Source: a phage
Sequence record: PZ386971.1
Length of the DNA stretch: 64,000 nt
Reading direction: 5' to 3' (one strand)
Shown here: positions 4,202-48,737 of the stretch, one piece after another
Position numbering within the stretch: position 1 is the stretch's first letter
How the letters are laid out: each line of letters starts with the position of its first letter
Translations under genes and position numbers: made by a program
The notes under the pieces: generated by a model
Told to the model about the DNA's origin: nothing
The model's input: the letters and a program-made list of their open reading frames with translations, nothing else
Databases searched by the model: none

Positions 4202-4504
4202 ATGAAAAGTTTTTCTCAATTTTTAGCAGAAGCAGGCCTAAAAGGTGACCTTCAGAAAGTTAAAGACTCCGTGATTGAATGGTTGGAAGACCAAGATGTA
4301 AGGCTCAAAAAGGGTGATATCGAAAATGGAGTATTTGGAGATTTCTTCCGCATAACCATTGATGATTTTGAATATACATATAATGGCAAAGAGATCAAAG
4401 TATTCGACCTGAAGAAAGATAAACAGGTTGTTAGCAAAGCTGCTGGAACTCGAGAAGCCCCAGGTGAACTCGGTAAATTGTTTAAGAAATACAGCAAAGT
4501 GTGA
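4202..4504 (+). CDS. Hypothetical small protein (100 aa)
   Basis: ORF with GAGGT SD, followed by a terminator hairpin; lies in the sheath-tube insertion. Confidence 0.5.
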   Translation: MKSFSQFLAEAGLKGDLQKVKDSVIEWLEDQDVRLKKGDIENGVFGDFFRITIDDFEYTYNGKEIKVFDLKKDKQVVSKAAGTREAPGELGKLFKKYSKV

Positions 4505-4508
4505 CAAG

Positions 4509-4530
4509 ACCCCGCTTCGGCGGGGTTTTA
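4509..4530 (+). terminator. Rho-independent terminator (ccccgcTTCGgcgggg + T-run)
   Basis: Perfect 6-bp GC stem with TTCG loop then TTTT; same hairpin sequence recurs at 12721. Confidence 0.6.
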
Positions 4531-4559
4531 AATTTTTCTAGATTATTTTATTGAATTAC

Positions 4560-4587
4560 TTTACTTCTTCAATAACTCACGTATAAT
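4560..4587 (+). promoter_or_regulatory. Early sigma70-type promoter (-35 TTTACT, 16 bp, -10 TATAAT), cassette A copy 1
   Basis: TTTACTtcttcaataactcacgTATAAT then conserved leader cataagcag..caacttgaaa and AGGAACTATATCATG. Confidence 0.55.
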
Positions 4588-4635
4588 TCTAAACATAAGC
4601 AGTACGACACCAACTTGAAACGAAGGAACTATATC

Positions 4636-4992
4636 ATGACCAAGACCGAAATTAACGCTATCCTGAAAGAAATCGGCCTCTGCAACCTGAAACGCCGCGT
4701 CAATCCTTACCAGCCCGCAAAGCCAGTACGCGACAGCCAGGGAAAGATGATAAAAGGGATCTACTGTGCAGATGTTGGCCCAATGACTGTGACCAGTCCA
4801 CACATTGACAGATTTAACGCTATTGTTGAGGAGTTTTGTGGTAAGGTTCTGGGTGAACTAGCTAATGATTTATGCTCCCCAGATACCAAAGTTGTAGCTT
4901 TCGGGAGCCACCTCGTCACATTCCACCTCACCAGCTTCCGTGCCCACGGTGATTATCATGTGTATTATGCTCAGGTTAGCATTCGCAAATAG
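4636..4992 (+). CDS. Hypothetical protein (118 aa)
   Basis: ATG at 4636 preceded by AGGAACTATATC; the track's MKRRNYIM N-terminus is an artefact of an in-frame TTG in the leader. Confidence 0.5.
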   Translation: MTKTEINAILKEIGLCNLKRRVNPYQPAKPVRDSQGKMIKGIYCADVGPMTVTSPHIDRFNAIVEEFCGKVLGELANDLCSPDTKVVAFGSHLVTFHLTSFRAHGDYHVYYAQVSIRK

Positions 4993-4998
4993 CAGTTT

Positions 4999-5022
4999 AC
5001 CCCGCTGAGGCGGGGTTTAGTT
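4999..5022. terminator. Bidirectional terminator hairpin between convergent genes
   Basis: accccgcTGAGgcggggt flanked by T/A runs, between the + ORF ending 4992 and the - gene ending 5017. Confidence 0.5.
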
Positions 5023-6801
5023 TTCCAGTTCATACCGGATAAGACCACACCCCCAGATACGCCCCAACCCGGCTTCCACCGACAGCATATCCTCTGTTTT
5101 GCCTTCTATATCGTATCCAAGTTTAAGGAATTTCTCTTTCCTGAAATTGAATTTGTGTATACGTAAGCTATAGTCTGGTGTCACATATTTGTAATCAGGG
5201 GGAAGGATTTCCTTTTCAACAAATCCGTTATTCAGGTAAACATTTTTCAGACGACTGACAACACAACGATCACCAAAAGAATATACTGTCTCACCCCGAT
5301 GTCGAGCGATATAATATTTCAGCAAGCGTGAGAATGCGCCATGGCAATTGTTAGAAGCAAATCTCACCAATTCAATACCATGCACTCGTTTGGTAAACAA
5401 CATCACCGCCTGGATATTCCCAGTTTTGTCTACAAGGTGTATATAATCTGTCGCCACCACACCACCTTGTATATGGAATCGGTCGAGAAAGTCCTTGGAC
5501 GTCCTATAGGAGCCTTCCAAAATGGTATGTTGGCGAGCGTATGACAATGGTTTCCCTATCCCCAATTTTGCTTTTAGGAGTGATTTAACCACTTCCTGTT
5601 TGTCACGCCACTCATCTTCCCAGATATGGATTAATTGAATACCCTGGGATTCACAGTGCATAGTCTTTTCAAGATGGTAGTCTTTGTATCGATGTTTCTC
5701 CGAATGCCAATACAACCCATTAAATTCTATTGCCAACTTATGTTCTGGGCAGTATATGTCTATCTGGCGTGTGGTCGCCCTCCCGTCGAACATTTTACCT
5801 CTGAGGACGGAGAAATTACCAGATTCATAAACGACACCCAATGAATCCAGGTATGAACATATTTCTATTTCTGGCTGTGTTTGGCTTTGGCTGCTGGGGT
5901 ATGTGAAAGAGTTCCTATATTCTTCAGAAGAGAAATAGTGAGGTACGCCGTATTTTTCTTTTGAAATGATCCTGGTATTGGCCTGGCTTCTATCCCATAT
6001 AGCCTTTACCTTCAACGGATAATCAACCCCATATTTTAAGACGCATGTTTTCTTTCTCTTTTCTATAATGGAATTGAGGAACATTGGATGATCCACACCA
6101 TAGATCTTCCTCCAAGTCTCAATCACCCTTTCCCTCACTTCTGGCATTTTCATGACGTGTGATACGCCATAGCGTTCCATGACAGAAGCAGCCACTCTGT
6201 CCTTTATAACATCAGACTTCATAGGGTGGTCGACCCCATATTTCTTAAGGGCAGTTTCCCGTGACTTTTGTTTTACTTCTTCCAGTTGGAATATGTTGGC
6301 TACGCCATATTTCTCTGTTATGGCGTTTTCTAGGTTGGCCCGTTCTGAGCCTCCCACCTTCATTGATTCTCGTTGGCATTCTTCGGAACAAAACTTTTTG
6401 TATCTGGGCGGTTGGGCTTCCATTTCTAAGCCGACGTCAGCACCGCAAGTGGCACACTGCGACTTCGGAATATCGTACAGCCAAGCAGTTATCGCTTGTG
6501 GTTCTTCTAATAGGTCGTTGTGTGACACCACGTATCCAACAACATCAACCCCAGTATGGGCCGTGAGTAGGGGATGAGAGATAAGTTTGTAGTTCAACGA
6601 ACCATCTTTCTTCCTGAGTTTACTATCAACCCAAGAGCGGCATTCGGTTTCGGTCGTCGGGATGTCATCCAACAAACCCGGATTGCGTTTCATCGTTCCC
6701 AGCATGAATGATTTGCATTCGTCACTACAATACAACGCAGCCTTCCTGGTTGGGGTGAACGGTTTGTGGCAGCATAAACAATTTTTATCGGGGAATGGCA
6801 T
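5017..6801 (-). CDS. Homing-endonuclease-like protein: N-terminal Cys cluster, six tandem KYGV..HP repeats, Vsr/DUF559-like PD-(D/E)XK nuclease domain
   Basis: 594 aa from ATG 6801 (GAGGAT SD); N-terminal CLCCH..C..C; repeats KYGVANI / KYGVDHPM / RYGVSHVM / IYGVDHPM / KYGVDYPL / KYGVPHYF; IDIYCPEHKLAIEFNGLYWHSE...IHIWEDEW resembles the Vsr/DUF559 fold; antisense insertion between conserved sheath and tube genes. Confidence 0.55.
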   Translation of the reverse strand: MPFPDKNCLCCHKPFTPTRKAALYCSDECKSFMLGTMKRNPGLLDDIPTTETECRSWVDSKLRKKDGSLNYKLISHPLLTAHTGVDVVGYVVSHNDLLEEPQAITAWLYDIPKSQCATCGADVGLEMEAQPPRYKKFCSEECQRESMKVGGSERANLENAITEKYGVANIFQLEEVKQKSRETALKKYGVDHPMKSDVIKDRVAASVMERYGVSHVMKMPEVRERVIETWRKIYGVDHPMFLNSIIEKRKKTCVLKYGVDYPLKVKAIWDRSQANTRIISKEKYGVPHYFSSEEYRNSFTYPSSQSQTQPEIEICSYLDSLGVVYESGNFSVLRGKMFDGRATTRQIDIYCPEHKLAIEFNGLYWHSEKHRYKDYHLEKTMHCESQGIQLIHIWEDEWRDKQEVVKSLLKAKLGIGKPLSYARQHTILEGSYRTSKDFLDRFHIQGGVVATDYIHLVDKTGNIQAVMLFTKRVHGIELVRFASNNCHGAFSRLLKYYIARHRGETVYSFGDRCVVSRLKNVYLNNGFVEKEILPPDYKYVTPDYSLRIHKFNFRKEKFLKLGYDIEGKTEDMLSVEAGLGRIWGCGLIRYELEN

Positions 6802-6882
6802 AATAAATATCCTCACTTTGGAGTATTTTAACCCCCATTTATTTCAAAACTAAATATTTACACTATTCAGAGGAGAACGACC

Positions 6883-12693: not shown

Positions 12694-12720
12694 TCGAATA
12701 GTTGTCCTTAACCCTGACAA

Positions 12721-12742
12721 ACCCCGCTTCGGCGGGGTTTTT
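12721..12742 (+). terminator. Rho-independent terminator after the major capsid gene
   Basis: accccgcTTCGgcggggttttt, identical stem-loop to the one at 4509. Confidence 0.65.
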
Positions 12743-12794
12743 CATTTTGGGGATTCGTTATATGATGTGCCAAACTTAACCGGAGATAACGTGT

Positions 12795-12995
12795 ATGAGC
12801 CTGAAAGAAGATTCTGTAAACACCACAGTCGCCAACTCCACTTTCCGTGAGTGGCACGACGTATTGTGCAAAGTCGCGAAAAGCCAGGGCGGTTCAGCCG
12901 CCGACGCCGACGCCTGGCGTGATGATTACGAAGCAGGCAAGACCCCTCGCCAGTCTTGGGAAGATGAATGGGGTTGGGAAGAACAAGAAGGATAA
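12795..12995 (+). CDS. Small acidic Trp-rich protein (66 aa)
   Basis: ORF with GGAGA SD; C-terminus WEDEWGWEEQEG. Confidence 0.4.
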   Translation: MSLKEDSVNTTVANSTFREWHDVLCKVAKSQGGSAADADAWRDDYEAGKTPRQSWEDEWGWEEQEG

Positions 12996-13055
12996 CAGTT
13001 TTCAATAACGGGGCGAGAGGTATTATTGCCCCGTCTACTATCCGAGGGTTGTGCC

Positions 13056-13280
13056 ATGTACCTGAAAAAGACTGTGAAGAAGCCGAAAGGCGAAGTGATC
13101 GAAGTGTGCCTTATTGAGGCTTATGTTGACTCCTGGAACAATGAGCAGCGCTACTTCATGGTCAACACATTGGTGTATGTGCCAGCCTCTCACCTGAACC
13201 GTGATTTCATCACAACCGAGAACATCGTCCGCTGGGAGATTGCAACGCAGTCCGATATCGACAAACACATCATTCTTTGA
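13056..13280 (+). CDS. Hypothetical small protein (74 aa)
   Basis: ATG with GAGGG SD; track ORF begins at an upstream TTG. Confidence 0.4.
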   Translation: MYLKKTVKKPKGEVIEVCLIEAYVDSWNNEQRYFMVNTLVYVPASHLNRDFITTENIVRWEIATQSDIDKHIIL

Positions 13281-13297
13281 AAGGAAGGAACTATATC

Positions 13298-13741
13298 ATG
13301 TCAAAAGAGAAATACATTTTTATCAGTCCAGCCACGAAGGAGTTCTTCATCTCTGACGTGAAAGACCGTGTTGAGAAGTTCCGCTACATGCGCAGCTATG
13401 GTCTGGCGTCTGGTGAGATCGATTACCAGTCCCTGGATAATGATCGCCAGGATCTGATTGATGACGGCTGGCGTTTGGTCCCATCCCCTCAGTATATCCA
13501 TATCAAGCTGTACTACATGAAGGACAGCGGGAAGTATTATTCTGAAGGTGAACTCGTCCTCAATCGTGGAGAGGCTGAAGCTGAACCTGCTAAGTCCTGG
13601 ATGGACACTATGGATAAAATCCGCTATCTTCTCGACTCAGGCAATTTGCCCGGTTTGGTTAAAGGTGCCCGGTACGAGGTCTTCGTGACCGGAGAAGGGC
13701 ATCCAGGTGGTTATCCACAACTGTTCCGCATTAACAACTGA
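13298..13741 (+). CDS. Hypothetical protein (147 aa)
   Basis: ATG preceded by AAGGAACTATATC initiation region. Confidence 0.5.
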   Translation: MSKEKYIFISPATKEFFISDVKDRVEKFRYMRSYGLASGEIDYQSLDNDRQDLIDDGWRLVPSPQYIHIKLYYMKDSGKYYSEGELVLNRGEAEAEPAKSWMDTMDKIRYLLDSGNLPGLVKGARYEVFVTGEGHPGGYPQLFRINN

Positions 13742-13749: not shown

Positions 13750-13986
13750 ATGATTATCAAAAAGATCGGCGCAAGTCCTCTCACTGGTACTATATTCCAG
13801 GGCAGGTTGAACACCAAAACCAGCATGTGGGTTGGTGAGAAGACCGACGTGACAGATGACTGCGTGGCAGCTGTAGCTGAACACTTGCGACACATCAAGA
13901 AAGACTATTGCTTCCCAACGACGGATGGTAAGTTTCTGGTGCTGAGCGCCGAGGTTCACGACACCCTTCCCGACCGCTTCAAATAA
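13750..13986 (+). CDS. Hypothetical small protein (78 aa)
   Basis: ORF with GAGGT SD immediately after the previous gene. Confidence 0.45.
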   Translation: MIIKKIGASPLTGTIFQGRLNTKTSMWVGEKTDVTDDCVAAVAEHLRHIKKDYCFPTTDGKFLVLSAEVHDTLPDRFK

Positions 13987-14011
13987 ATTTTAAATTTATT
14001 CAATATACGGG

Positions 14012-14040
14012 GTTTAATTCTTCAATAAACCCCGTATACT
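14012..14040 (+). promoter_or_regulatory. Early promoter, cassette A copy 2 (-35 GTTTAAT, -10 TATACT), -35 lies in the loop of a tacgggg..ccccgta stem
   Basis: Followed by the same conserved leader tcattccataagcagcacaaca...gaaa and AGGAAATATATCATG as at 4588 and 48392. Confidence 0.5.
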
Positions 14041-14089
14041 TCATTCCATAAGCAGCACAACATTGACTCTGAAATGAAGGAAATATATC

Positions 14090-14419
14090 ATGACTTTTAA
14101 AGGCTTTGTAGCATTCGACGCAACCAAAACCAACGTGCTGAGCAACCCGCAGCTGGAAACCATCTCTGAAATGCGCCAGTGGGTGATGGGGATCACTGGC
14201 CATCAAACCCGAAAGGATCTTGAAGCGGAGTTCTATATCGAACCTGCTGAAGTCTTCTTCAATCGCCCTGAAGATGAACCGTTCATCCGTCAAGACTTGG
14301 ATGACAATGATATCACTCTCGCGATCTTCTCTGAAGCAAAAGCGGCTATGATCGTGGACGGCCTGTGTGATGAGTCCTTCACATACGATGAATACTGCGA
14401 TCAGTGTCAGGATCTGTGA
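14090..14419 (+). CDS. Hypothetical protein (109 aa)
   Basis: ORF downstream of cassette A copy 2. Confidence 0.5.
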   Translation: MTFKGFVAFDATKTNVLSNPQLETISEMRQWVMGITGHQTRKDLEAEFYIEPAEVFFNRPEDEPFIRQDLDDNDITLAIFSEAKAAMIVDGLCDESFTYDEYCDQCQDL

Positions 14420-21670: not shown

Positions 21671-21697
21671 GAAATGATTCTTCTACACGAGGCTGAA

Positions 21698-22687
21698 ATG
21701 TCTAATATCACTATCGTTTCCGACCAGTACGCATGGGAAAACAAGTACCGCCCTGACAACCTGGACGAGATTATCATCCCTCAAGACGTCCGCGCTAAAA
21801 TCCATGGCTACATCACCAGCGGCAACGGCAACATCCCGTCTATGCTGTTCTACTCCCCTCAGCCTGGTACTGGCAAGACTACCTCCGCCCTGGCCGTGTG
21901 TAATGAAATCGGTTGTAAGCAACCACTGATGATCAACGCATCCCTGGACAACAGCATCGACGTTATCCGTGACCGCGTGATTCAGTACTCTACTGGTGTG
22001 AGCGTATTCGGTGGTCGCAAAGTCGTTATCCTCGACGAAGTAGAGCGTCTGTCTATGGCGGCACAGGAGTCGCTGAAGGGTATTGTGGAGAAGGTCTCCA
22101 AGAACTGTTCATTCATCCTGACCACCAACGCCAAGCAACGTGTGAACGAACCTCTGCGCTCTCGTTGCCGTGAAATCGACTTTATCTGGAATGAGGCTGA
22201 GGCTGATGAGGTAAAACTTCAGTTCATGCGCCGCTGTGCTGAAATCCTTCGCTGCGAAGGTGTTGAGTATGACCCTCCTGTGTTGGCTGCTATTGTCAAG
22301 CGCCATTTCCCTGATAACCGCCGCATCATGGGTGTTCTACAGGATAACGTCACCACTTACGGCAAGATCGACGAACGTGCACTGGCTGTGTTAAAATCGG
22401 CCGATATGGGCATGTTGGTGAATATGTTGAAGGATAATGACTGGGCTGGGATGAAGCAGTGGGTGACCGACAACCAGAACTATATCACTGAAGACTTCTA
22501 TTCCCGCTTCTTCCAGTTCTGTGTACCACAGGATAAAGAGAAGCAAATGTTGGTTCAGAATGAGTCTATCCCTGATCTGGTATGCGTGTGTGGTCAGTCT
22601 CAGATTGAACACCGTCAGGTCGGCGATGTCTGGCTGCATGCTGTGTATTTCCTGACCAACGTCATGCTCAACATCAAGTGGAAGTGA
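21698..22687 (+). CDS. 44: Clamp loader large subunit (T4 gp44-like AAA+)
   Basis: SPQPGTGKTT Walker A (T4 SPSPGTGKTT), LRSRCREIDF (T4 LQSRCRVITF), C-terminal NIKWK (T4 EMQWK). Confidence 0.9.
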   Translation: MSNITIVSDQYAWENKYRPDNLDEIIIPQDVRAKIHGYITSGNGNIPSMLFYSPQPGTGKTTSALAVCNEIGCKQPLMINASLDNSIDVIRDRVIQYSTGVSVFGGRKVVILDEVERLSMAAQESLKGIVEKVSKNCSFILTTNAKQRVNEPLRSRCREIDFIWNEAEADEVKLQFMRRCAEILRCEGVEYDPPVLAAIVKRHFPDNRRIMGVLQDNVTTYGKIDERALAVLKSADMGMLVNMLKDNDWAGMKQWVTDNQNYITEDFYSRFFQFCVPQDKEKQMLVQNESIPDLVCVCGQSQIEHRQVGDVWLHAVYFLTNVMLNIKWK

Positions 22688-23143: not shown

Positions 23144-23608
23144 ATGGCGCGCAATACGCTAGACATATTGAACATTTCAGCCGTCAACGATGAGGCCAGC
23201 ATCGTTGATTGTATGGTTGAAGTTCAATTGAACCAAGATCGGCCAGGAATATTCCTGGGGATCAAGGAAACACTGAGCCGGATTGGGGTAAACACGCGCC
23301 AAGAGCCGAATACTCTGTATCAGACTTGCCATATTCTTCATAAGTGTGGTAAGTATTATATCGTCCACTTTAAGCATCTATTCATGCTGGACGGGCATTA
23401 CAACGGATTTAACCGCGAAGATGTCCTGAGGATGAACCGCATCATCAAGCTGCTGGAGCAGTGGAACATGGTGAAGGTCATTCATCCCGAGCAGGTCACC
23501 GAAGCCGCCGATATGTCACGCATTAAAGTGGTTAAACACGATCAGGTTCCTGAATGGAAGCTGGTCCCAAAATACATTATCCGGCCTACGAAGGCCAAGA
23601 GCGAATAA
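23144..23608 (+). CDS. regA: RegA translational repressor
   Basis: LYQTCHILHKCGKYYIVHFKHLFMLDG and EWKLVPKYIIRP match T4 RegA LYQSCHILQKKGLYYIVHFKEMLRMDG and EWKLVPKYTIG. Confidence 0.85.
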   Translation: MARNTLDILNISAVNDEASIVDCMVEVQLNQDRPGIFLGIKETLSRIGVNTRQEPNTLYQTCHILHKCGKYYIVHFKHLFMLDGHYNGFNREDVLRMNRIIKLLEQWNMVKVIHPEQVTEAADMSRIKVVKHDQVPEWKLVPKYIIRPTKAKSE

Positions 23609-23624
23609 CTGGAGTCGCTAAATC

Positions 23625-24497
23625 ATGACAACTACATTTTCTAAGAACGTGAATCTGAATCTGGCTTTCGGTAATGCAAAGGGCGACGTCACATCGCCTG
23701 ACTTTGGTAAGATCCGCAATCAGGCGAAACTGGTGCTGGAAGAGACCCGCGAACTGCTGGAAGCGGTGTTCTTTGACCATGATGTGAAGGTGGAATTCAC
23801 TGCAACTCCACGAGTCCTGAAAGAACCTGCCGTTGTGGACATCAAAGGCATCATGCGCCAGATCATGGATGCCCAGGGCGACATCACAACAGTCAACGAC
23901 GGTTTGGCTCATATTGCTGGTTTCGACGGCGACGAATGCCTACAGCGCGTGTATGCGTCTAACATGAGCAAGTTCATTCGCAATGAAGGTGAAGTTGTGC
24001 CTGCACTGGATTACTACTACAACAAAGGCTTCCCACGCGAAAGTCTGCGCATCGAAGGGGAATTCCCTCAGGCGTGCATCAAAGTGGTAGACACCATCAC
24101 CGTCGACGGCAAAGAATACCCGGCTGGCAAGTTCCTGAAGAACATGGCAACCTTCAAAGAGCCTGACTTCTCTGATATGCTGACTGCCGAGCCTAAGCGC
24201 CAGATCACTGAAATCATTCTGACGGGTACGGCCATTCCAGGCCAGCTCGGCTCTAACGAACACGCTGGTGTTGCCTTCGCTCCGTTCGATTTTATTGACG
24301 AGATCATGGGATACACCAAGATGGGCTTCCAGGCGTTCTCTGGCGAAACAGTCGAGAGCTACATTCCCGTGTTTGTTTTCAATGAAGACAACTTCCCAAC
24401 TCTACCGTTGATCTGGGGTGAATGGAAAGCCAACGTCCGTATCTATGTGGCCAGCCCAGTGCAATCATCTATCACCCAACTGACCCGTATCGATTAA
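23625..24497 (+). CDS. Hypothetical protein (290 aa) with weak MazG/HisE-like all-alpha NTP-pyrophosphatase signature at N-terminus
   Basis: EETRELLEAV (EExxE) segment; the full EExxE...EExxD motif is not convincingly present. Confidence 0.45.
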   Translation: MTTTFSKNVNLNLAFGNAKGDVTSPDFGKIRNQAKLVLEETRELLEAVFFDHDVKVEFTATPRVLKEPAVVDIKGIMRQIMDAQGDITTVNDGLAHIAGFDGDECLQRVYASNMSKFIRNEGEVVPALDYYYNKGFPRESLRIEGEFPQACIKVVDTITVDGKEYPAGKFLKNMATFKEPDFSDMLTAEPKRQITEIILTGTAIPGQLGSNEHAGVAFAPFDFIDEIMGYTKMGFQAFSGETVESYIPVFVFNEDNFPTLPLIWGEWKANVRIYVASPVQSSITQLTRID

Positions 24498-25789: not shown

Positions 25790-25903
25790 AGATTCCCTTT
25801 ACTTCGTTCTTCAATAACTCAATCCAGCGTATATTAACCTCACTTAAACGAAGCGCCCTGGCAAACGGGGCGCACATTTGAACTGAAACAGGAAGATTAC
25901 ATC

Positions 25904-27922
25904 ATGTCAGATTTTAAGCCCTTCGCAGTAGCTGTCAACAATAACGTGCTGGCCATGTCAGCAACTGGTCTGTTCATGACCAACATCGATAAAGATGCTC
26001 TGTGGGATCTGTATCTGTCTTCTTTCCCTGCTGGCACTAACCCGCTTTATCGTGAGCGTACCGAGCACGACTGCACCTGCTGTAAACAATTCATCCGTAA
26101 TATCGGCGGTGTGGTCACCATCGACTCCGACCTGAACGTGATCTCTATCTGGGATAACATTCAGCTGGGTAACGAATACGACGTTGTCGCTGCGGCGCTG
26201 TCAGCATATGTTAAGCAGCACGCAATCGTCGACGTGTACTTCAACGACACCAAGAAAGTTGGTGTTGAGTCGAATCACGAAATGAAAGACGGTATTGCCC
26301 GCACCTACAACCACTTCCACACCGACCTGCTGGGTAGCTATGTTCTGCGGGCAGATACCATCGCTTCTAAGAAGGGCGAAATCCGCCAGGCGATTGAAGT
26401 GTTTGAGCGCGGTCTGCGCGAACTGTCTCTGGAATCGGCTGAAATCGTTCTGGAATTGATTGACCAGAATTCTCTGTATCGCGGTGAAGAGCACAAAGCG
26501 GCAGTGCAGGCGTTCGTGGTGAACAAGACCCTGTACGAACAAACTGCAGAAGAGAAACGCGCTCTGTGGGCTTGGCGCACTGGCTACCGTGCAAACGGTC
26601 ATACCCCTCACGGCATTCGTAATACCGTGATTGGCTCTCTGCTGGTAGACCTCAATGAAGGCCGGGATTTGGAAACCGCCGTGAAGTCCTTTGAAGCCAA
26701 AGTCGCCCCGACGAACTACAAGCGCCCAACCGCGCTGGTCACGAAGTCGATGATTGAAAACGCGCAGAAAGAAGTCGAAGCGCTGGGTCTGACTGATTCA
26801 CTGGGTCGCCGTTATGCCGTGTATGACGATCTGACCATCAACAACGTTCTGTTCGCCGATCTGGCAGCTCAGAAGAAGATGGACCCGTTTGCTCAGCTGG
26901 CGTCTGAAGTGAAGACTCCGACCAAGTCCCTGGACAAGGTTGAAGAGATCACGATCGACGACTTCCTGGCCAACGTGTTGCCAAAGGCGCATTCCCTGGA
27001 AGTGCTGGTCGAAAACTCTCACATTGGCAACCTGATGTCCCTGATCGCTCCGGCTACCGCAGGCGCTCCTAACCTGTTCAAATGGAACAACGGTTTCAGC
27101 TGGTCATACAACGGTGAAGTGGCCGACTCCATCAAAGAGCGCGTGAAGACAGCAGGCGGCAACGTTGACAGCTTCCTCCGGGTGTCACTGGCTTGGCATA
27201 ACAACGACGACCTGGATCTGAGCATGAACGATCCTCTTCACAACCACGTATATTTTCGCAACCGTCGTTCGACAACTGGCGCAACTCTGGACATCGACAT
27301 GAACGGTATGGACGGCATTGACCCAAATCGCCGTCCGGTGGAGAACATCTTCTTCAGCGATGAACGCAAGCTACGTGACGGGAATTATGAGTTCTATGTC
27401 ACCAACTTCAACAAGCGTGAAACCTGTGACGTTGGTTTCGAAATCGAAGTCGAATACAAAGGCCAGACCAAGCGCTTCTCACACCCTGGCCTGGGTAACA
27501 AAGATCGCACGTTGGCTGTTGTGGTTCAGGTTCGCGCTGGTCAGGTGGTTGACATCAGTTCTACCCTGAAAGACGACGCTCGCTCTCAGGAAATCTGGGG
27601 CATCAAGACCTCCGTCTTCCAGAAGGTACAGCTGGTTCTGAACTCACCAAACCATTGGGACGGCGAGCAGACGGGCAACAAGCACGTGTTCTTCATCCTG
27701 GAAGGTTGTGCTAACCCTGTCGGCACCCGTGGTTTCTATAACGAATATCTGAAGCCGGAACTTGATAAACACCGCAAGGTTTTTGAAATGTTAGGTGGTA
27801 AGATTAAAGTACAGCCAAGCAATGAGCAGCTGTCCGGTCTGGGCTTCTCTACCACCCAACGCAACCACGTGTTCGTGAAGGTGAGCGGTTCGTTCAACCG
27901 CACTGTGAAAGTTGTGTTCTAA
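25904..27922 (+). CDS. Hypothetical large protein (672 aa)
   Basis: Clean ORF preceded by AGGAAGATTACATCATG; Cys cluster HDCTCCKQF near N-terminus; no recognisable catalytic motif. Confidence 0.6.
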   Translation: MSDFKPFAVAVNNNVLAMSATGLFMTNIDKDALWDLYLSSFPAGTNPLYRERTEHDCTCCKQFIRNIGGVVTIDSDLNVISIWDNIQLGNEYDVVAAALSAYVKQHAIVDVYFNDTKKVGVESNHEMKDGIARTYNHFHTDLLGSYVLRADTIASKKGEIRQAIEVFERGLRELSLESAEIVLELIDQNSLYRGEEHKAAVQAFVVNKTLYEQTAEEKRALWAWRTGYRANGHTPHGIRNTVIGSLLVDLNEGRDLETAVKSFEAKVAPTNYKRPTALVTKSMIENAQKEVEALGLTDSLGRRYAVYDDLTINNVLFADLAAQKKMDPFAQLASEVKTPTKSLDKVEEITIDDFLANVLPKAHSLEVLVENSHIGNLMSLIAPATAGAPNLFKWNNGFSWSYNGEVADSIKERVKTAGGNVDSFLRVSLAWHNNDDLDLSMNDPLHNHVYFRNRRSTTGATLDIDMNGMDGIDPNRRPVENIFFSDERKLRDGNYEFYVTNFNKRETCDVGFEIEVEYKGQTKRFSHPGLGNKDRTLAVVVQVRAGQVVDISSTLKDDARSQEIWGIKTSVFQKVQLVLNSPNHWDGEQTGNKHVFFILEGCANPVGTRGFYNEYLKPELDKHRKVFEMLGGKIKVQPSNEQLSGLGFSTTQRNHVFVKVSGSFNRTVKVVF

Positions 27923-28398: not shown

Positions 28399-28773
28399 AT
28401 GAAACCTGTTATATGCGATTACTGTGGCCTCCCAGCCGAATTCGTCGGTGGTGATGTTCTCTACCCTCATCACCCTGACCTCCGCAATCTGAAGTTCTGG
28501 GTGTGCACTCCATGTGATGCCCGTGTCGGTTGCCATGCCCATGGCGACGGCAGACAACCTTTGGGAAGGATGGCGAATGCCGCTCTCCGTGCTGCTAAGC
28601 AAAAAGCCCATAGATCGTTTGACCCATTATGGAAAAGCGGAGAGAGGAGCAGGAGCGACGCTTACAGTTGGCTGGCGCATAAGCTGGGGATTAAGAAGCG
28701 CGATTGCCATATCGGCTTGTTCGATATCGACATGTGCCGTAAAGTAGTGGAGGTCTGTAAACAAATATCATAG
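28399..28773 (+). CDS. Zinc-ribbon protein (125 aa)
   Basis: CDYC...(n)...CTPCDARVGCHAH Cys/His cluster. Confidence 0.5.
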   Translation: MKPVICDYCGLPAEFVGGDVLYPHHPDLRNLKFWVCTPCDARVGCHAHGDGRQPLGRMANAALRAAKQKAHRSFDPLWKSGERSRSDAYSWLAHKLGIKKRDCHIGLFDIDMCRKVVEVCKQIS

Positions 28774-28781
28774 GAGAACAC

Positions 28782-29654
28782 ATGACAACTCGCACTGGCA
28801 TCAAACTCACTCCTGAAGTCCTGAAGTCACATATCGCTGAGGTGATTTACGAAGACCGCGAAGTCGGCGGTCACCGGGCTATCACTTGTCATTTCAAGAT
28901 GGATAACGGCTTCGTCGTTCACGGCACCAAGCCCAGCACATCCATAGACCCGGCCAACTTCGATGAAGCCCTGGGCAAAGAGATTTCCTACAATAACACC
29001 TTCGACCAGCTGTGGCAGCTGGAGGCGTACCGGGCGCTTGTTGAACAAGATCTGTTGGCCAAAGCCACGGAAACGGCAGAGATCCGGATCGATCAATACG
29101 CTGTTGAACGTAGCGCCCTCTGTCCGGCCTATCACCTCGGCTTCAATGTGATGATTCAGGAAGTGATGTTCAGAGCGGAAAATGGCGAGCGCTTCTTGGC
29201 GTCTTTCATTTGTGGGCCGGATGACATGGAACTTGTTGTTGAATCTCACAACGCCAAATCTCGTAAGGCTGTTAGTGATTTCCTGCGCGCCAACTCCAAA
29301 CTCGATCTCACTTGTTCGCCATTGGTTCTGCGCATCGCCAAGATTTGTCATGAAGCCAACCGCGCATACTGCAAGTCTATTGGTGACGACTCTCAACTGC
29401 CTTGGGAACAATCTCCGGCCTGGCAGCGTGAGAGCGCTTGCAAAGGTGTTATCTTCCATCTCACTGGTGATCGTAAGCCCAGCGAATCGCATGAGAGATG
29501 GATGGCGGAGAAGGAGTCTGAGGGATGGGTATATGGCCCAGTCAAAGACCCTCAGACCAAGCAACACCCTTGCATAGTTCCGTATGGAGAACTCCCGGTA
29601 CAACAACGCTCCAAAGATTATATTTTCAAATCCATTGTAGACTCCTTTAAATAA
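28782..29654 (+). CDS. Gp49-like N-terminal domain fused to a C-terminal RyR-domain
   Basis: N-terminus HRAITCHFKMDNGFVVHGT...DPANFDEALGKEISYNNTFDQLWQLEAYRAL; C-terminus HERWMAEKESEGWVYGPVKDPQTKQHPCIVPYGELP resembles the RyR repeat. Confidence 0.5.
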   Translation: MTTRTGIKLTPEVLKSHIAEVIYEDREVGGHRAITCHFKMDNGFVVHGTKPSTSIDPANFDEALGKEISYNNTFDQLWQLEAYRALVEQDLLAKATETAEIRIDQYAVERSALCPAYHLGFNVMIQEVMFRAENGERFLASFICGPDDMELVVESHNAKSRKAVSDFLRANSKLDLTCSPLVLRIAKICHEANRAYCKSIGDDSQLPWEQSPAWQRESACKGVIFHLTGDRKPSESHERWMAEKESEGWVYGPVKDPQTKQHPCIVPYGELPVQQRSKDYIFKSIVDSFK

Positions 29655-29690
29655 GCTCTGAATAATATTTCAACCTGTCAATAATATAAT

Positions 29691-29719
29691 GCCCGGTTAT
29701 ATTCAATCGGGCATTTTTA
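29691..29719 (+). terminator. Terminator-like hairpin after the RyR-domain gene
   Basis: gcccg-(12 nt loop)-cgggc followed by ATTTTTA. Confidence 0.4.
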
Positions 29720-29728
29720 TTATATTAA

Positions 29729-29759
29729 TTGGCATCAATACCGCCTGTCGTAATATAAT
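29729..29759 (+). promoter_or_regulatory. Sigma70-like promoter (TTGGCA ... TATAAT) upstream of the vWA gene
   Basis: TTGGCA at 29729 and TAATATAAT at about 29751-29759 (16-19 bp spacer depending on hexamer choice). Confidence 0.4.
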
Positions 29760-29804
29760 AGTCCCATGTTAAAATAGTTAGGAAATATAACTCACGAGAG
29801 CCTG

Positions 29805-29981
29805 ATGACCGACAACAAATTAAAACGTGTCGGACTTGATTGTCTTGACAATTCATTCCGCCCCAGTGATGTTCTGGTCGCCCAAATGGAAAACAACCGG
29901 GATTTCATTGAAACTATGCTGGAGAACGCCGACGCGAACTCCAAACACTCCAAAGCCCAAAAAGGTCAAAACGATGATTGA
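29805..29981 (+). CDS. Possible small ORF (58 aa) overlapping the vWA start
   Basis: Not in the track (under 60 aa); ATG with GAGAG upstream; reads MTDNKLKRVGLDCLDNSFRP...; hand-indexed coordinates. Confidence 0.25.
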   Translation: MTDNKLKRVGLDCLDNSFRPSDVLVAQMENNRDFIETMLENADANSKHSKAQKGQNDD

Positions 29982-32541: not shown

Positions 32542-32547
32542 CAGAAG

Positions 32548-32572
32548 TCCCCAACAAACGTTGGGGATTTTT
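32548..32572 (+). terminator. Terminator hairpin tccccaacAAAgttgggga + T-run (copy 1)
   Basis: Identical 26-bp element recurs at 32904. Confidence 0.55.
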
Positions 32573-32583
32573 ACTTTTAGGGG

Positions 32584-32612
32584 TTTACTTCTATAATGTA
32601 AATGCGTATTAT
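32584..32612 (+). promoter_or_regulatory. Early promoter (-35 TTTACT, 17 bp, -10 TATTAT)
   Basis: gggGTTTACTtctataatgtaaatgcgTATTAT; same -35 family as cassette A. Confidence 0.45.
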
Positions 32613-32661
32613 TGAATTCATAGAGCGGGGCGTTCCTGTTCATTGAAAGAAGGTATACATT

Positions 32662-32886
32662 ATGTCTGCTATATCATGTGTTGTTGATCTCACCCCATTT
32701 TGCCTGAACAATATTGCTAACCCTAAATTGGTCTTGTTTAAGGATCCCTCTAATTTCTGCTGGCTGGCAAGTTGTGATACCAACAACGGGCGTCGTGCTG
32801 TTTGGGAGTTTCCCGCAACTGATGAAGGCAGAATTTCTGCTATAAGAAAATTAGAACTAGAAAATTCAAGCCGAGAAATTAAATAG
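32662..32886 (+). CDS. Hypothetical small protein (74 aa)
   Basis: ORF flanked on both sides by duplicated terminator-promoter cassettes. Confidence 0.4.
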   Translation: MSAISCVVDLTPFCLNNIANPKLVLFKDPSNFCWLASCDTNNGRRAVWEFPATDEGRISAIRKLELENSSREIK

Positions 32887-32903
32887 GCATAACTTTTATT
32901 AAA

Positions 32904-32928
32904 TCCCCAACAAACGTTGGGGATTTTT
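32904..32928 (+). terminator. Terminator hairpin tccccaacAAAgttgggga + T-run (copy 2)
   Basis: Exact repeat of the element at 32548. Confidence 0.55.
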
Positions 32929-32940
32929 AACTTTTAGGGG

Positions 32941-32969
32941 TTTACTTCCTTTAAGGAATGTCCTATTAT
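32941..32969 (+). promoter_or_regulatory. Early promoter (-35 TTTACT, 17 bp, -10 TATTAT)
   Basis: GTTTACTtcctttaaggaatgtccTATTAT. Confidence 0.45.
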
Positions 32970-33020
32970 TCAATAACTGGCGAACGATGGGTTCACCGGG
33001 TTGAAAGGTAAGATTATATC

Positions 33021-33260
33021 ATGAAGAACAAAATGGTCGAAACTTCAGTAGAGATTGATCGCAATTGGGGATTGCTCCGCGCTAAAGGGTTCCGTCGTGT
33101 GTATGCGACCAAAGAAGTCTACGCACAGCGCCGTGACGTTATCATCAGCAAGAAAGGCAAAGAGTGGGTTGCTGAAGAAGTTGATGTCGAGACAGGCATC
33201 GTAGGAAAGGTAAAGGCCAAGGCCGTGATCCTCTTCGCTCTTCTGAAGCACATCAGTTAA
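33021..33260 (+). CDS. Hypothetical small protein (79 aa)
   Basis: ATG preceded by AGGTAAGATTATATC. Confidence 0.4.
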   Translation: MKNKMVETSVEIDRNWGLLRAKGFRRVYATKEVYAQRRDVIISKKGKEWVAEEVDVETGIVGKVKAKAVILFALLKHIS

Positions 33261-33273
33261 TTCTATAACTTTG

Positions 33274-33300
33274 GGCGGGGTATGATTACCCCGTCTATTT
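33274..33300 (+). terminator. GC hairpin GGCGGGGTATGATTACCCCGTC + TATTTG (type B, copy 1)
   Basis: 31-bp element identical to the one at 33833. Confidence 0.5.
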
Positions 33301-33319
33301 GAAATGCAGGAACTATACC

Positions 33320-33826
33320 ATGACCGATCAACAAATTCAAGATTTATTTTACCTCGTCCATGATAAGTCCCACATCATGCGCCCCGGTACTGTTTCCCCT
33401 GCCGTCCGTGATCTGGTGCAAGAATTGCGCGAACCACAGACGACCACACTTTATCGCGGGTTGCCTAAAGAGGACGTTGCGCGTTTAGAGATGATGTTTG
33501 AACGAGGCGACATGTTCCAGACATGGGATTCTTGCCTTAGCTTCAGTGAACTGAAGCATGTGGCCAAAAAATTTTCTAAATCGTACGGAACCCAAGCTGT
33601 TGCCCGCATTTGTTACAAACATCGAAACAGACTCCCGGAGGGGCTTAATGTCTATGGTTCTCTAGAAAAATTTGTGAACAAAGGCGATGAATCAGAAATG
33701 GATATGCTGGACTTGGCGTCCATGGAGAAAGAATGGATATTCTGCCAGCCTCGCGTCATACCAGTTTCAAGAAAAATGGCAACAGACGGCACGATGGTTT
33801 TTACCGTATCACTTGTTACCCTATAA
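33320..33826 (+). CDS. Hypothetical protein (168 aa)
   Basis: ATG preceded by CAGGAACTATACC. Confidence 0.5.
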   Translation: MTDQQIQDLFYLVHDKSHIMRPGTVSPAVRDLVQELREPQTTTLYRGLPKEDVARLEMMFERGDMFQTWDSCLSFSELKHVAKKFSKSYGTQAVARICYKHRNRLPEGLNVYGSLEKFVNKGDESEMDMLDLASMEKEWIFCQPRVIPVSRKMATDGTMVFTVSLVTL

Positions 33827-33832: not shown

Positions 33833-33859
33833 GGCGGGGTATGATTACCCCGTCTATTT
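33833..33859 (+). terminator. GC hairpin GGCGGGGTATGATTACCCCGTC + TATTTG (type B, copy 2)
   Basis: Exact repeat of 33274 element. Confidence 0.5.
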
Positions 33860-33878
33860 GAAACCAAGAGACTATATC

Positions 33879-34256
33879 ATGAAAAAGTTAATCCTCGCTG
33901 TTGCCCTGCTGGGCGCTTCCTTTGCTGCTGTTTCCGCCCCTCCTGTCATCACCGGAGTGTCTACCAACGGTGTTTATGCTTTCAAGGCGTATGGCCAAGA
34001 CCTCGTTCTGTATAAGAACGGGAAGATGATTGAGCGCTGCGTATCAGACGACGTGAATCGTGGGATCGACAATCAGGGTAGCCCATACGTCCTGGACATC
34101 TATTCCTGCTCCAACGGGACGAAGTCCTTTGGCGTCAAGACCTTTGGCAACGTCGCCGACGGTGGCTGGGGCTTCATGTTCGAAACCCGCAACCACCACC
34201 CGGTCAAGACCATGCAAGAAGAGTTCTTGATCTCTGTCGGGGGTGGAACATTATGA
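33879..34256 (+). CDS. Secreted small protein with signal peptide (125 aa)
   Basis: MKKLILAVALLGASFAAVSA signal-peptide-like N-terminus; two Cys. Confidence 0.5.
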   Translation: MKKLILAVALLGASFAAVSAPPVITGVSTNGVYAFKAYGQDLVLYKNGKMIERCVSDDVNRGIDNQGSPYVLDIYSCSNGTKSFGVKTFGNVADGGWGFMFETRNHHPVKTMQEEFLISVGGGTL

Positions 34257-37180: not shown

Positions 37181-37236
37181 TCAATAACCTCGGGCGGCTT
37201 ATCATAAAGCTGCCCTTTCATTTGAGAGACTATATC

Positions 37237-37899
37237 ATGGAAAAACTTTATTCTATTATCGTCGGTCCTGATCCTGACGGATTATTCTTCGCCTCGTTGT
37301 CTTATATTGCCCACGCCCGTATCGGTAGCTATTACGCATATTGCACACGTGGCCACGACGGTTCCAATATCCTCCATTATAGCCGCCTGAACGATTTCCT
37401 GGCACTTCAACCAGAAGATGTTGTGCTGGCGCGTCGCGTGTTCATCGACTTCAACGCGATGCACAACAACGAAATCGACGCTCGCTACCATGCCATGCGT
37501 TCTATGGACGGGGGAGATTGCATTTATCGTATCGACCATTTTAGTGAGTTTACCGAATGTATTGATTGGTTTATCTCTGATAAAGTGATGGGTGAAAGAA
37601 TCGTCACAACTCCGTGGGCACATGCGGAACAACTTCGTGTGTCTACCGATGCGTACAAAGAAGTCGACAATCTGTGCAACAAGTTCCGCATCTCGGTGAC
37701 CTGTAATCAAGACCTGGGCGAAGAGATACAATGGACAGCTGAGTCTCCTCATTTCAGTGGCCTGGTGATGACGGCCGAAACCCGTTCCCGTGCTGTTGTC
37801 CAGTTAGTACTCTGGGCGTTCTACCAGCGCACCCCGTTCTCGTACATGGGGCAGAAAGAGATTGATGAACTCCTGAAGTCTCACGCGGTGGAGGTGTAA
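37237..37899 (+). CDS. Hypothetical protein (220 aa)
   Basis: ATG preceded by GAGAGACTATATC. Confidence 0.5.
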   Translation: MEKLYSIIVGPDPDGLFFASLSYIAHARIGSYYAYCTRGHDGSNILHYSRLNDFLALQPEDVVLARRVFIDFNAMHNNEIDARYHAMRSMDGGDCIYRIDHFSEFTECIDWFISDKVMGERIVTTPWAHAEQLRVSTDAYKEVDNLCNKFRISVTCNQDLGEEIQWTAESPHFSGLVMTAETRSRAVVQLVLWAFYQRTPFSYMGQKEIDELLKSHAVEV

Positions 37900-47080: not shown

Positions 47081-47695
47081 ATGACGATGACAACGTTGAA
47101 GGCCATGGCCTTGTCCGTGACCTTTACCATTGCCAGCGGGAATGTGCACGCTTCCCAAAATACAAGTCAATGTGTTTATGATTTCTCTGAGCAACAACTT
47201 AATACGATGGCAACCGCCTATCACGTAGGCAAGACACAAGATCTTGGCTACACTCTGGCCGCCATATCTTGGCGAGAGAGCCGCGCTGGTGAAGATGTAG
47301 TGTCAATGCGATACGGCCTCAAGGCGGCCAACATGGGAGCCTTCCAGAACAAGGTGAAGACAGTTGGTGATCGCGAAGGTTGTAAGAATCGCAAGTGCTA
47401 TGCCAATGTCGCCATAAAGTTGCTGACCGACCAAGAATATGCCGCGCAAGCCGCCCTCGATGAGATACAGTTCTGGCTGACCTATCACAATCAGAATATC
47501 CGCAAATCCCTCTCCTCTTACAATGCTGGCTTCGCCCGTAATCCCGCATCGAACGCTTATGCTGCTGACGTCGTGAAGAAAGCTAAATATCTTCAGAAAT
47601 GTGTGTCTTTCGAAGGCCGGACCATCTCCGAGGTAGATCCTCAGGTGATCGCCATGAACAAGCACACAATAGAGAAACTGAAGAGGACAAGATAA
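47081..47695 (+). CDS. Secreted protein with lytic-transglycosylase-like motif
   Basis: Signal-peptide-like N-terminus MTMTTLKAMALSVTFTIASGNVHA; ISWRESRAG...GAFQ weakly resembles the SLT ES/GLMQ motifs. Confidence 0.4.
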   Translation: MTMTTLKAMALSVTFTIASGNVHASQNTSQCVYDFSEQQLNTMATAYHVGKTQDLGYTLAAISWRESRAGEDVVSMRYGLKAANMGAFQNKVKTVGDREGCKNRKCYANVAIKLLTDQEYAAQAALDEIQFWLTYHNQNIRKSLSSYNAGFARNPASNAYAADVVKKAKYLQKCVSFEGRTISEVDPQVIAMNKHTIEKLKRTR

Positions 47696-48333
47696 TGAAC
47701 ATCACTCCATCTCAGGCCGGATATGAACATATCTTGGTCTTCATTGCTCTACAGGGTGCGAAGGAAGGCATCATCGTATCCGAGTACTCAGGCACGGTTC
47801 GCCTTGCCGATTATGTCGCACCAGAGGCATTTATCAAGAAGTGTATTGACGCATGGTGCCTCTATGCCCTCGGCACGTATCCTGCTCCTCCTGATGGCGA
47901 GCTGTTGTTTACTGTGCCGACTCCGGCTGCTGGCGATACGGACGCGATCTTTGCCGATATGCTGGCCAAGGGGTATCTGGTGTATGACATCACCCACGAT
48001 GTCTACTCCTTTACTTCGCTGAACACCGTGTTTGGATTCACCATCACATCTGAAGCCAACATCCCTGACTGGGGTATCTTGGCATGGGGTGTTGACGGCC
48101 TGGGTGCAACCTACGCATCGTCTGACGTCGGTGCAGTTCTGATTGATGAGGGTGTCACCATGGAGCAGTACCTTGCCCAGTTCCCTCAGCACAATATCAC
48201 AGGCAGCGACATCATTTTGGTCCAGCCTGGCGCTATCGCTCTCCCCCGTTTGGTGGATGGATGGAATCCTCGGCTGAAGGACATCATCGCAGGTATTCGA
48301 TCCCACATTCCGATTGTGAATCCGACGCCGTAA
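47695..48333 (+). CDS. Hypothetical protein (212 aa)
   Basis: ATG overlapping the upstream stop (TAATG); the track's N-terminal extension is low-complexity. Confidence 0.5.
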   Translation: MNITPSQAGYEHILVFIALQGAKEGIIVSEYSGTVRLADYVAPEAFIKKCIDAWCLYALGTYPAPPDGELLFTVPTPAAGDTDAIFADMLAKGYLVYDITHDVYSFTSLNTVFGFTITSEANIPDWGILAWGVDGLGATYASSDVGAVLIDEGVTMEQYLAQFPQHNITGSDIILVQPGAIALPRLVDGWNPRLKDIIAGIRSHIPIVNPTP

Positions 48334-48362
48334 AATAATTCAATAAAAGGGGCTTTTGCCCC

Positions 48363-48391: not shown

Positions 48392-48439
48392 TCATTCCAT
48401 AAGCAACACAACACCAACTTGAAAAGCAGGAACTACACC

Positions 48440-48715: not shown

Positions 48716-48737
48716 TTTGAACCGAAGGAACTATATC

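Follow-up and report, generated by a model that had tools for sequence, protein, structure and literature searches.

Promoter-early-stem-loop (PeSL) cassettes have been described for RB49/phi1 (Arbiol et al., 2010; PMC2839356) and for the pairs PST/T4 and nt-1/KVP40 (Comeau et al., 2014; PMC4122927). In these elements, by definition, a stem-loop closely precedes an AT-rich region and a sigma70-like promoter, and the end is formed by a Shine-Dalgarno sequence and a start codon (PMC4122927, Fig. 3 legend). The PST/T4 pair has the consensus TTTACW-N17-TAYWAT, and "degraded" copies are also known (PMC4122927; PMC2839356). Crossovers were placed between the -10 element and the ATG, between the Shine-Dalgarno sequence and the -10 element, in the stem-loop, or beside the AT-rich region (PMC4122927; PMC2839356), and inverse PCR demonstrated PeSL mini-circles (PMC2839356). 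The present analysis concerns a 64,000-nucleotide stretch of phage DNA (sequence record PZ386971.1; the whole stretch is called the window), in which a promoter, leader and start region recur in front of small open reading frames (ORFs). These repeats are probably PeSL-type composite regulatory cassettes of an Ackermannviridae phage.

By megablast, the window belongs to Ackermannviridae, subfamily Aglimvirinae, with ∼97% identity to Escherichia phages vB_EcoM-ZQ1, PC3, PH4, A221 and LHE287 and ∼87% identity to the Dickeya Limestonevirus group. Its genes, nearly all on the + strand, run from the large terminase through head and tail genes to replication and nucleotide-metabolism genes. According to the CBA120 paper, early promoters could not be found by informatics in ViI-like phage (PMC3184105); the AG3 paper gives eight tentative sigma70 promoters, and a 2024 Ackermannviridae review mentions neither promoters nor transcription. 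The literature search returned no paper that joins PeSL with Ackermannviridae, Kuttervirus, Limestonevirus or ViI-like phages.

Three full modules of ∼80 nt each, here called A, B and C, end at the ATG codons at 4636, 14090 and 48440. They have in common a -35 element followed by TCTTCAATA, a -10 element, a leader beginning CATAAGCA and the start region TTGAAAnGnAGGAACTATATCATG. The -35 element is TTTACT (TTTAAT in copy B) and lies 16–17 nt from a -10 element of TATAAT or TATACT; the leader reads CATAAGCAG... and is followed by the ribosome-site motif AGGAACTATATCATG. The parts of these modules and their cargo, the ORFs placed behind them, are as follows.

4506–4529, + strand: module A hairpin, an intrinsic terminator of 10 pairs followed by a T run (-17.3 kcal/mol, z = -4.0).
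4530–4559, + strand: module A AT-rich upstream region, which holds TTATTGAA (4548–4555), an inverted copy of the spacer sequence TTCAATAA.
4560–4587, + strand: module A promoter, with -35 TTTACT at 4560–4565, 16 nt, and -10 TATAAT at 4582–4587.
4594–4638, + strand: module A predicted 5' leader CATAAGCAGTACGACACCAACTTGAAACGA and motif AGGAACTATATCATG; ATG 4636.
4636–4992, + strand: module A cargo ORF of 118 aa, phrog_13016, unknown function.
4999–5016, + strand: module A right-hand terminator hairpin, a repeat of 4506–4529.
14004–14038, + strand: module B hairpin, a 13-bp stem enclosing the -35 element and spacer (-17.5 kcal/mol, z = -7.0).
14013–14040, + strand: module B promoter, with -35 TTTAAT at 14013–14018, 16 nt, and -10 TATACT at 14035–14040.
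14047–14092, + strand: module B leader and ribosome-site motif; ATG 14090.
14090–14419, + strand: module B cargo ORF of 109 aa.
48346–48365, + strand: module C terminator hairpin, GGGGC/GCCCC, abutting the -35 element.
48363–48391, + strand: module C promoter TTTACT, 17 nt, TATACT (-35 at 48363–48368, -10 at 48386–48391).
48398–48443, + strand: module C leader and ribosome-site motif; ATG 48440; left ribosome-site repeat.
48440–48715, + strand: module C cargo ORF of 91 aa, phrog_5704.
48714–48741, + strand: right ribosome-site repeat of slot C; ATG 48738, followed by cargo ORF 48738–49073.

A first-pass annotation had described these copies as near-identical cassettes with one common hairpin. 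The promoter, leader and start strings it quoted are indeed present in all three at the coordinates given, and its assignment of the -35 element to the T4 early class, with a likeness to PeSLs, is supported: the consensus equals that of the PST/T4 PeSL (PMC4122927). "Near-identical" was an overstatement, since pairwise identity from -35 to ATG (∼80 nt) is 78%–79% among the three copies. Nor do the three share a hairpin. Repeat families and folding indicate that the hairpins of A, B and C are not homologous: that at 4506–4529 is homologous to those at 4999–5016 and 12719–12740 (after the major capsid gene) and not to copies B and C, and that at 48346–48365 is a third sequence unrelated to the hairpins of A and B. 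All are strong (-14 to -17.5 kcal/mol, z = -4 to -7), and the slot C stem is kept in another genome through one compensatory change (GGGGC/GCCCC to GGGAC/GTCCC). The AT-rich stretch lies downstream of the hairpin in module A and upstream of it in B and C, where the hairpin overlaps or abuts the -35 element. Module A, which lies between the tail sheath and tail tube genes, has a promoter with 10 of 12 matches to the sigma70 consensus.

The repeats lie far above chance in self-repeat families, shuffle controls and a profile hidden Markov model (HMM) built solely from cassettes of other genomes. The profile recovered the full copies at E = 1e-20 to 3.5e-23 and a fourth, more diverged full-length copy at 62115–62205 (E = 3.6e-8). 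On the + strand it also matched start regions alone at 33295, 13247 and 48713 (E up to 2e-3), with weak matches, again all on the + strand, at 55516, 32935, 62436, 32578 and 33854. The 15-mer AGGAACTATATCATG (≤2 mismatches) occurs 11 times against 0.16 expected, each time on the + strand and at a start codon; the leader 16-mer (≤3 mismatches) occurs three times against 0.57 expected; and TTTACTTC-N15-TAYWHT has four matches against none in shuffles, the diverged copies 32584, 32941 and 62123 being among the exact ones. In total, the 64 kb hold four full-length and at least eight partial copies. Promoters of the TTTACT class (one TTTAAT) with 16–17 nt and TATAAT, TATACT or TATTAT number eight, all on the + strand. 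The five diverged promoter copies listed earlier (32584, 32941, 62123, 55517 and 25798) all exist, the last one degenerate; those at 32584, 32941, 55517 and 25798 are promoter-only. In the complete ZQ1 genome there are only seven TTTACTTC-type promoters, six of them in the part equivalent to the window.

The start-region module also occurs without a promoter within runs of small ORFs, often after a hairpin and TATTTGAAA, as at 33272–33323, 33833–33882 and 37192–37239. AGGAACTATATCATG is absent where the clamp, clamp loader, regA, nrdA, nrdB and helicase genes start, and the motif is therefore not the generic ribosome site of the phage. A 7-nt spacer, CTATATC, is conserved between the Shine-Dalgarno sequence and the ATG. 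The more diverged and the start-only copies, apart from those that took part in the events described below, are these.

55517–55620, + strand: module G, promoter TTTACT-17-TATTAT (55517–55545), leader hairpin (55556–55572) and diverged ribosome-site motif; ATG 55618.
25798–25906, + strand: module H, degenerate promoter, leader hairpin (25853–25873) and weak ribosome-site motif; ATG 25904. Insertions put TTTACT 26 nt from the -10 element.
13277–13300, + strand: ribosome-site-only copy; ATG 13298.
37192–37239, + strand: hairpin and ribosome-site-only copy; ATG 37237.

The layout published for PeSLs is found in modules A, B, C, D, E and F, and the cassettes are probably of the PeSL kind, in another phage family than described. 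The LIMEstone1 annotation carries a sequence-based "putative early promoter" at the orthologous slots B and E, and the slot G -10 element falls in its "putative middle promoter"; its call for slot C, again a "putative middle promoter", is positioned elsewhere and not at the cassette promoter.

An 8-mer, TTCAATAA, is present in 12 copies against 2.3 expected, almost always inside or beside cassettes (4548, 4568, 14021, 25810, 32609, 32969, 35193, 48339, 55503 and 55524; also 13001 and 38438). One copy occupies the promoter spacer immediately behind TTTACTTC, and a second lies 20–35 nt upstream in either orientation; the two flank the -35 element as an inverted repeat in modules A and G. The 8-mer may be a UP-like element, the binding site of a regulator or a scar left by recombination.

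The window was aligned to ZQ1, PC3, A221 and LHE287 (94%–99% identity), and every alignment break was read. About 17 indel loci separate the window from these four close relatives, and six touch a cassette part. The elements concerned, beyond those of modules A to C, are listed here.

32543–32617, + strand: module D, hairpin (32543–32572) and promoter TTTACT-17-TATTAT (32584–32612); left copy of the 55-nt repeat D10. A second promoter, TTTACT-16-TATAAT, overlaps at 32570–32597.
32662–32886, + strand: 74-aa cargo ORF between the promoter repeats D and E.
32901–32974, + strand: module E, hairpin (32901–32926) and promoter (32941–32969); right copy of D10, ahead of ORF 33021–33260.
33272–33323, + strand: hairpin, TATTTGAAA and ribosome-site motif; ATG 33320; left copy of the 50-nt repeat D2.
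33320–33826, + strand: cargo ORF of 168 aa, predicted R-S-E ADP-ribosyltransferase fold.
33833–33882, + strand: right copy of D2, 88% identical; ATG 33879 of ORF 33879–34256.
62103–62151, + strand: module F, hairpin (62103–62125) overlapping promoter TTTACT-17-TATACT (62123–62151).
62182–62207, + strand: module F left ribosome-site repeat; ATG 62203 of cargo ORF 62203–62442.
62433–62458, + strand: module F right ribosome-site repeat; ATG 62454 of ORF 62454–62915.

Five events, one of them seen against LIMEstone1, run from repeat to repeat, and another is a replacement. ORF 48440–48715 is missing in ZQ1, PC3 and LHE287 and present in A221; the aligned blocks overlap by 27–28 nt, which correspond to the start-region repeat, and the relatives have one hybrid copy. 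Likewise, none of the four close relatives has ORF 62203–62442, which LIMEstone1 lacks too; the missing piece extends from one ribosome site to the next. ORF 33320–33826 is missing in LHE287, PC3 and A221, with a crossover within the 50-nt hairpin-plus-start-region repeat, the copies of which are 88% identical. PC3 and A221 are without ORF 32662–32886 together with exactly one promoter copy, the junction being in the 55-nt promoter repeat; the suggestion that the pair at 32548 and 32904 brackets this 74-aa ORF like a gene cassette is thereby confirmed. Apart from the six loci, module A with its promoter, leader and ORF 4636–4992 is flanked on both sides by copies of one terminator hairpin, and LIMEstone1 has a single hairpin and no module A between the sheath and homing endonuclease genes. 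In the replacement, the ORF behind cassette B gives way to an unrelated ORF in ZQ1. In PC3, A221 and LHE287 cassette B is "empty": the ORF is deleted, the ATG is lost and homology restarts at the stop codon. The sixth cassette-touching locus is ORF 4202–4504, which is missing in PC3 and A221; the right end of the gap coincides exactly with the base at which the module A hairpin begins.

Junctions thus fell in the ribosome site, the promoter, the hairpin plus ribosome site, and the terminator hairpin. The most widely repeated part and the commonest crossover site is the ribosome-binding/start module, not the promoter. Comparison of cassette-flanked ORF content among relatives, which had been proposed as a check, revealed ORFs gained, lost and swapped at repeats, and the modular shuffling by recombination that the first-pass annotation had suggested is seen as ORF indels with junctions in paired cassette repeats relative to ZQ1, PC3, A221, LHE287 and LIMEstone1.

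Two further arrangements were noted at cassette parts in other genomes. In PC3, a 652-nt ORF is inserted exactly at the clamp-loader start codon (window 21697–21700; PC3 23513–24166), and the right end of the insert, AACTATATCATGG, is a copy of the cassette spacer and start motif. Slot F of Shigella phage MK-13 (590–1200) contains an extra cassette, not in the window, which consists of a hairpin, a TTTACTTT promoter, a leader hairpin, AGGACTATATCATG and a 128-aa ORF; this arrangement suggests that slots may hold tandem arrays.

Outside the close relatives, an 85-nt query (4556–4640) matched by blastn at 798 places in 283 phage records, with two to four places per genome. Among the matches listed, all phages are Ackermannviridae of several genera, and their hosts are Salmonella, Escherichia, Klebsiella, Dickeya, Serratia, Shigella and Enterobacter. 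With a 1-kb query, the cassette alone matched in most genomes, and the matches ended at the end of the upstream ORF, the hairpin end, the -35 element or the ATG. A search of IMG/VR with the exact 15-mer gave >120 scattered single hits on unrelated contigs, which is chance level, and was set aside as uninformative. At the IMG/VR loci, copy B always follows the DUF7446 gene (13750–13986) and copy C always follows the DUF7270 gene (47599–48333). Over 18 unique loci of slot B, the upstream gene has a mean pairwise identity of 78%, against 94% between -35 and ATG and 41% over the initial 60 nt of the cargo; over 10 unique loci of slot C the corresponding values are 88%, 92% and 48%. The cassette is a family-wide, strongly conserved promoter-leader-start platform, with fixed positions for slots B and C. 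What moves is the cargo and not the cassette, which corrects the earlier reading.

The cargo is diverse. In Ackermannviridae as a whole, at least four unrelated cargo families occupy slot B, which may also be empty, and four occupy slot C, singly or paired. Pfam has no family for the cargo ORFs, and with one exception they fall in PHROGs of unknown function. The family of ORF 4636 is also found in slot C of Kuttervirus "barely", where the protein is 27% identical (E = 1e-10) and the promoter-leader is 98.8% identical to the slot A copy of the window; this is the only cross-slot case found among 22 cargo proteins, and the slots are in different subfamilies. ORF 62203 has near-identical relatives in the same slot and flanks in Shigella phage MK-13, a ∼90% identical relative in Yersinia phage CAU_YEP3 and ∼50% identical relatives in the unrelated jumbo phages CBB, GAP32 and XbC2. 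These came from a phage-genome collection; IMG/VR yielded no relatives of this ORF. In CBB, the one jumbo phage examined, the start-region motif was not present at the relative. Because the ORF has relatives in jumbo phages and is absent from five relatives of the window, its distribution favors acquisition over repeated loss.

The exception among the PHROGs is ORF 33320–33826, which matches phrog_832, "RNA polymerase ADP-ribosylase" (E = 6e-15). Ten homologues all keep R46, S74 and E136-x-E138. An AlphaFold model made with an alignment reached a pLDDT of 82.7 (the single-sequence model, at 43, was unusable), and its top 50 matches in the PDB are all ADP-ribosyltransferases, including HopU1, C3, ExoS/T, Vis and Certhrax, with E down to 8e-8. 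The protein is predicted to be an R-S-E-type ADP-ribosyltransferase. It is polymorphic, being present in the window and ZQ1, with homologues in Salmonella phages "bering" and "barely", and not in LHE287, PC3 or A221. ViI-like phages were reported to be without Alt/ModA homologues in the CBA120 paper (PMC3184105).

The family-wide conservation raises the question of whether the repeats are ordinary regulatory DNA, reused because it works, with indels that are incidental and no selected role in shuffling. The repeated use of several cassette parts for crossover in independent events speaks against this, and at least four unrelated cargo families behind one cassette need insertion or replacement and not deletion alone. 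Cassettes B and C are nevertheless syntenic and under strong purifying selection across genera, the leaders are as poor in structure as efficient translation would have them, and 11 of the ∼17 indel loci do not involve a cassette. Two observations fit poorly with it, however: the history of ORF 62203–62442, whose homologues in unrelated jumbo phages favor gain, and the conservation of the CTATATC spacer beyond any known ribosome-binding need. On balance the explanation appears unlikely.

Conservation of the leader could also reflect binding by a protein. The predicted leader is ∼43 nt long and A/C-rich, and starts near CATAAG. Leaders folded less well than 175–196 of 200 shuffles, and Rfam 15 at the gathering threshold gave no match in the whole window. 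A riboswitch or attenuator-like leader was dropped as a candidate since there is no leader structure and folding is worse than in most shuffles. The leader haplotypes GCACAACACTGAC and GTACGACACCAAC are four transitions apart; these were considered for covariation, but the four changes form no nested helix and they were treated as linked variants common to slots. A RegA translational-repressor homologue is encoded at 23144–23608 (+ strand; PF01818, E = 2e-34). T4 RegA binds a region spanning the Shine-Dalgarno sequence, spacer and AUG, and the motif found here spans the same elements. The leader and ribosome-site module could be mainly an RNA operator at which RegA, another phage factor or a host factor would turn a set of accessory-gene mRNAs on or off as a group. 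This explanation is compatible with the PeSL-type one, though it locates the selective constraint elsewhere, and is consistent with the extreme conservation of the leader across genera. Yet the start regions of gp45, gp44, gp62 and regA, the classic RegA targets, are without the motif, and with neither a predicted leader structure nor an Rfam family such binding is putative. As the lead reading, a RegA operator was set aside on account of the replication-gene starts; it is kept as a low-confidence rival and is regarded as improbable.

A broader version, which we consider quite improbable, is that the leader and ribosome-site module together with the TTCAATAA boxes at the -35 element would form a cis-acting platform for a phage-encoded factor, making the accessory genes one regulon, and serve as a gene capture site as well. 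The factor could be a DNA-binding regulator acting on the TTCAATAA boxes, or an RNA-binding protein, RegA or another, acting on the leader. If true, this would be a homologous-recombination analogue of the integron, maintained family-wide.

Short non-coding repeats that flank single ORFs superficially resemble gene cassettes, so that the copies could be imagined as a MITE-like transposable or an integron-like site-specific element with a dedicated recombinase. This is very improbable: terminal inverted repeats and target-site duplications are lacking at the copies, B and C occupy fixed syntenic positions in all genera, crossover points vary among ribosome site, promoter and hairpin as in homologous exchange, and the annotation of ZQ1, the closest complete genome, contains neither an integrase nor a transposase. 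Gene duplication that took the upstream regions along, as the tandem small ORFs with identical start regions might suggest, is scarcely credible, given that all-against-all BLASTP of 15 downstream ORFs found no pair below E = 0.03 and that identity falls from 92%–94% to 41%–48% exactly at the ATG.

In the PeSL-type reading, the terminator-like hairpin would insulate the cassette from upstream transcription. An AT-rich stretch would be followed by a host-sigma70-type promoter of the T4-early class (TTTACT, 16–17 nt, TAtAaT), then by the structure-poor leader and the fixed ribosome-binding/start module. Judged from the sequence, an ORF placed behind a full cassette would gain strong, probably early, expression. 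The 25–55-nt sequences that recur before small accessory ORFs would provide short homologies for the phage recombination system, and recombination at them would allow ORFs to be deleted, inserted or swapped without harm to the expression signals. The outcomes of shuffling are observed in the alignments; from these we infer the mechanism. Promoter activity, its timing and exchange by a mini-circle route are likewise presumed.

Several points weigh against this reading. The cassettes themselves are not mobile, because B and C are syntenic across genera. No Ackermannviridae transcription data were found in the literature searched, and promoter use and "early" timing are matters of sequence resemblance alone. 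The thymidines of Ackermannviridae DNA include hypermodified ones, and sigma70 might recognize T-rich hexamers differently as a result. A generic sigma70 scan was not enriched over shuffles in two of three segments and only modestly in the third; with counts near chance, only the TTTACT class is informative. The copy B -35 element is TTTACT in every other genome examined, and in the window it is weakened to TTTAAT and buried in a hairpin. The indel loci outside cassettes involve homing endonucleases (5130–6591; after the capsid gene, 12747) or junctions without repeats, and the enrichment, real but not exclusive, seems modest against a random-gene-boundary null. Most of the events could be either gain or loss. 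Finally, direct repeats are expected to delete, and recombination could be a by-product of repeats kept for expression.

Other features of the window were recorded. LHE287 is without the minus-strand homing-endonuclease gene of the 5017–6816 region, which separates ORF 4636 from the tail tube gene (deletion 5130–6591), and the endonuclease after the major capsid gene (12747–13000) is found in ZQ1, PC3, A221 and LHE287 and not in the window. A hypervariable spot at 28556–29959 has no cassette repeats at its junctions; there the window encodes a 290-aa ORF with Phage_gp49_66 and RyR domains, LHE287 a nicotinamide phosphoribosyltransferase and a ribose-phosphate pyrophosphokinase, and ZQ1 has only ∼330 nt. 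Directly downstream of slot C lies a 994-aa ORF of unassigned function (49149–52133, + strand), which is mosaic among close relatives (segments 49717–50039 and 51391–51776 are replaced or deleted) and whose middle part differs strongly between genera. The ZQ1 annotation places a "putative RegB" two genes before slot C; the label looks unsupported for window ORF 47081–47695 (+ strand), which was paired with it by synteny alone and has only a sub-threshold SLT-domain hit. The sequence CTAAATAC occurs five times, always on the + strand, against 0.84 expected (10391, 15477, 18676, 46994 and 52815), several copies being just upstream of genes, and may be a late-promoter-like motif of Ackermannviridae. 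The T4 late consensus TATAAATA has a single + strand occurrence, at 52158.

With these cassettes, PeSL-type gene shuffling would extend beyond T4-like phages proper. For a family in wide use in biocontrol and diagnostics, they supply candidate early promoters that are concrete enough to test and have predicted start sites. They mark points of entry and exit of accessory genes, such as that for the polymorphic predicted ADP-ribosyltransferase, and could aid the search for host-takeover and anti-defence genes. With promoter, leader and ribosome site ready, they might also serve as natural "landing pads" for engineering Ackermannviridae phages.

Lambdoid morons are autonomous promoter-ORF-terminator units inserted between genes. 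Module A (4506–5016), a self-contained terminator-promoter-ORF-terminator unit absent from LIMEstone1, resembles them; insertion and autonomous expression are what define a moron, however, and a shared repeated cassette sequence acting as recombination substrate is no part of the definition. With integrons the cassettes share a fixed promoter platform followed by exchangeable single-ORF cassettes bounded by repeated sites. In contrast to integrons, there is here no integrase and no attC-like structured site, and the variable crossover positions fit homologous recombination. The internal protein (IP) loci of T-even phages (Repoila et al., 1994, as presented in PMC2839356) are similar in that T4-early-type promoters and stem-loops flank variable small accessory genes and confine the shuffling. 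In that account, the IP elements belong to two specific loci with AT-rich weak stems, whereas the present cassettes have G+C-rich terminators and at least seven slots over 64 kb.

The PeSLs are the closest comparison. The present cassettes differ in belonging to Ackermannviridae, and no sequence homology to published PeSLs is claimed. Here the ribosome-binding/start module is the part most repeated and recombined, and is also found alone inside operons; a ∼43-nt leader is kept at 92%–94% across genera, a feature not described for PeSLs; and copies B and C are syntenic family-wide. The likeness to PeSLs lies in the order of the parts, in the consensus of the PST/T4 pair, in the multiple copies beside small unknown ORFs and the degraded copies among them, and in indels and replacements between close relatives that cross over at the -10 element, Shine-Dalgarno sequence and ATG or in the stem-loop.

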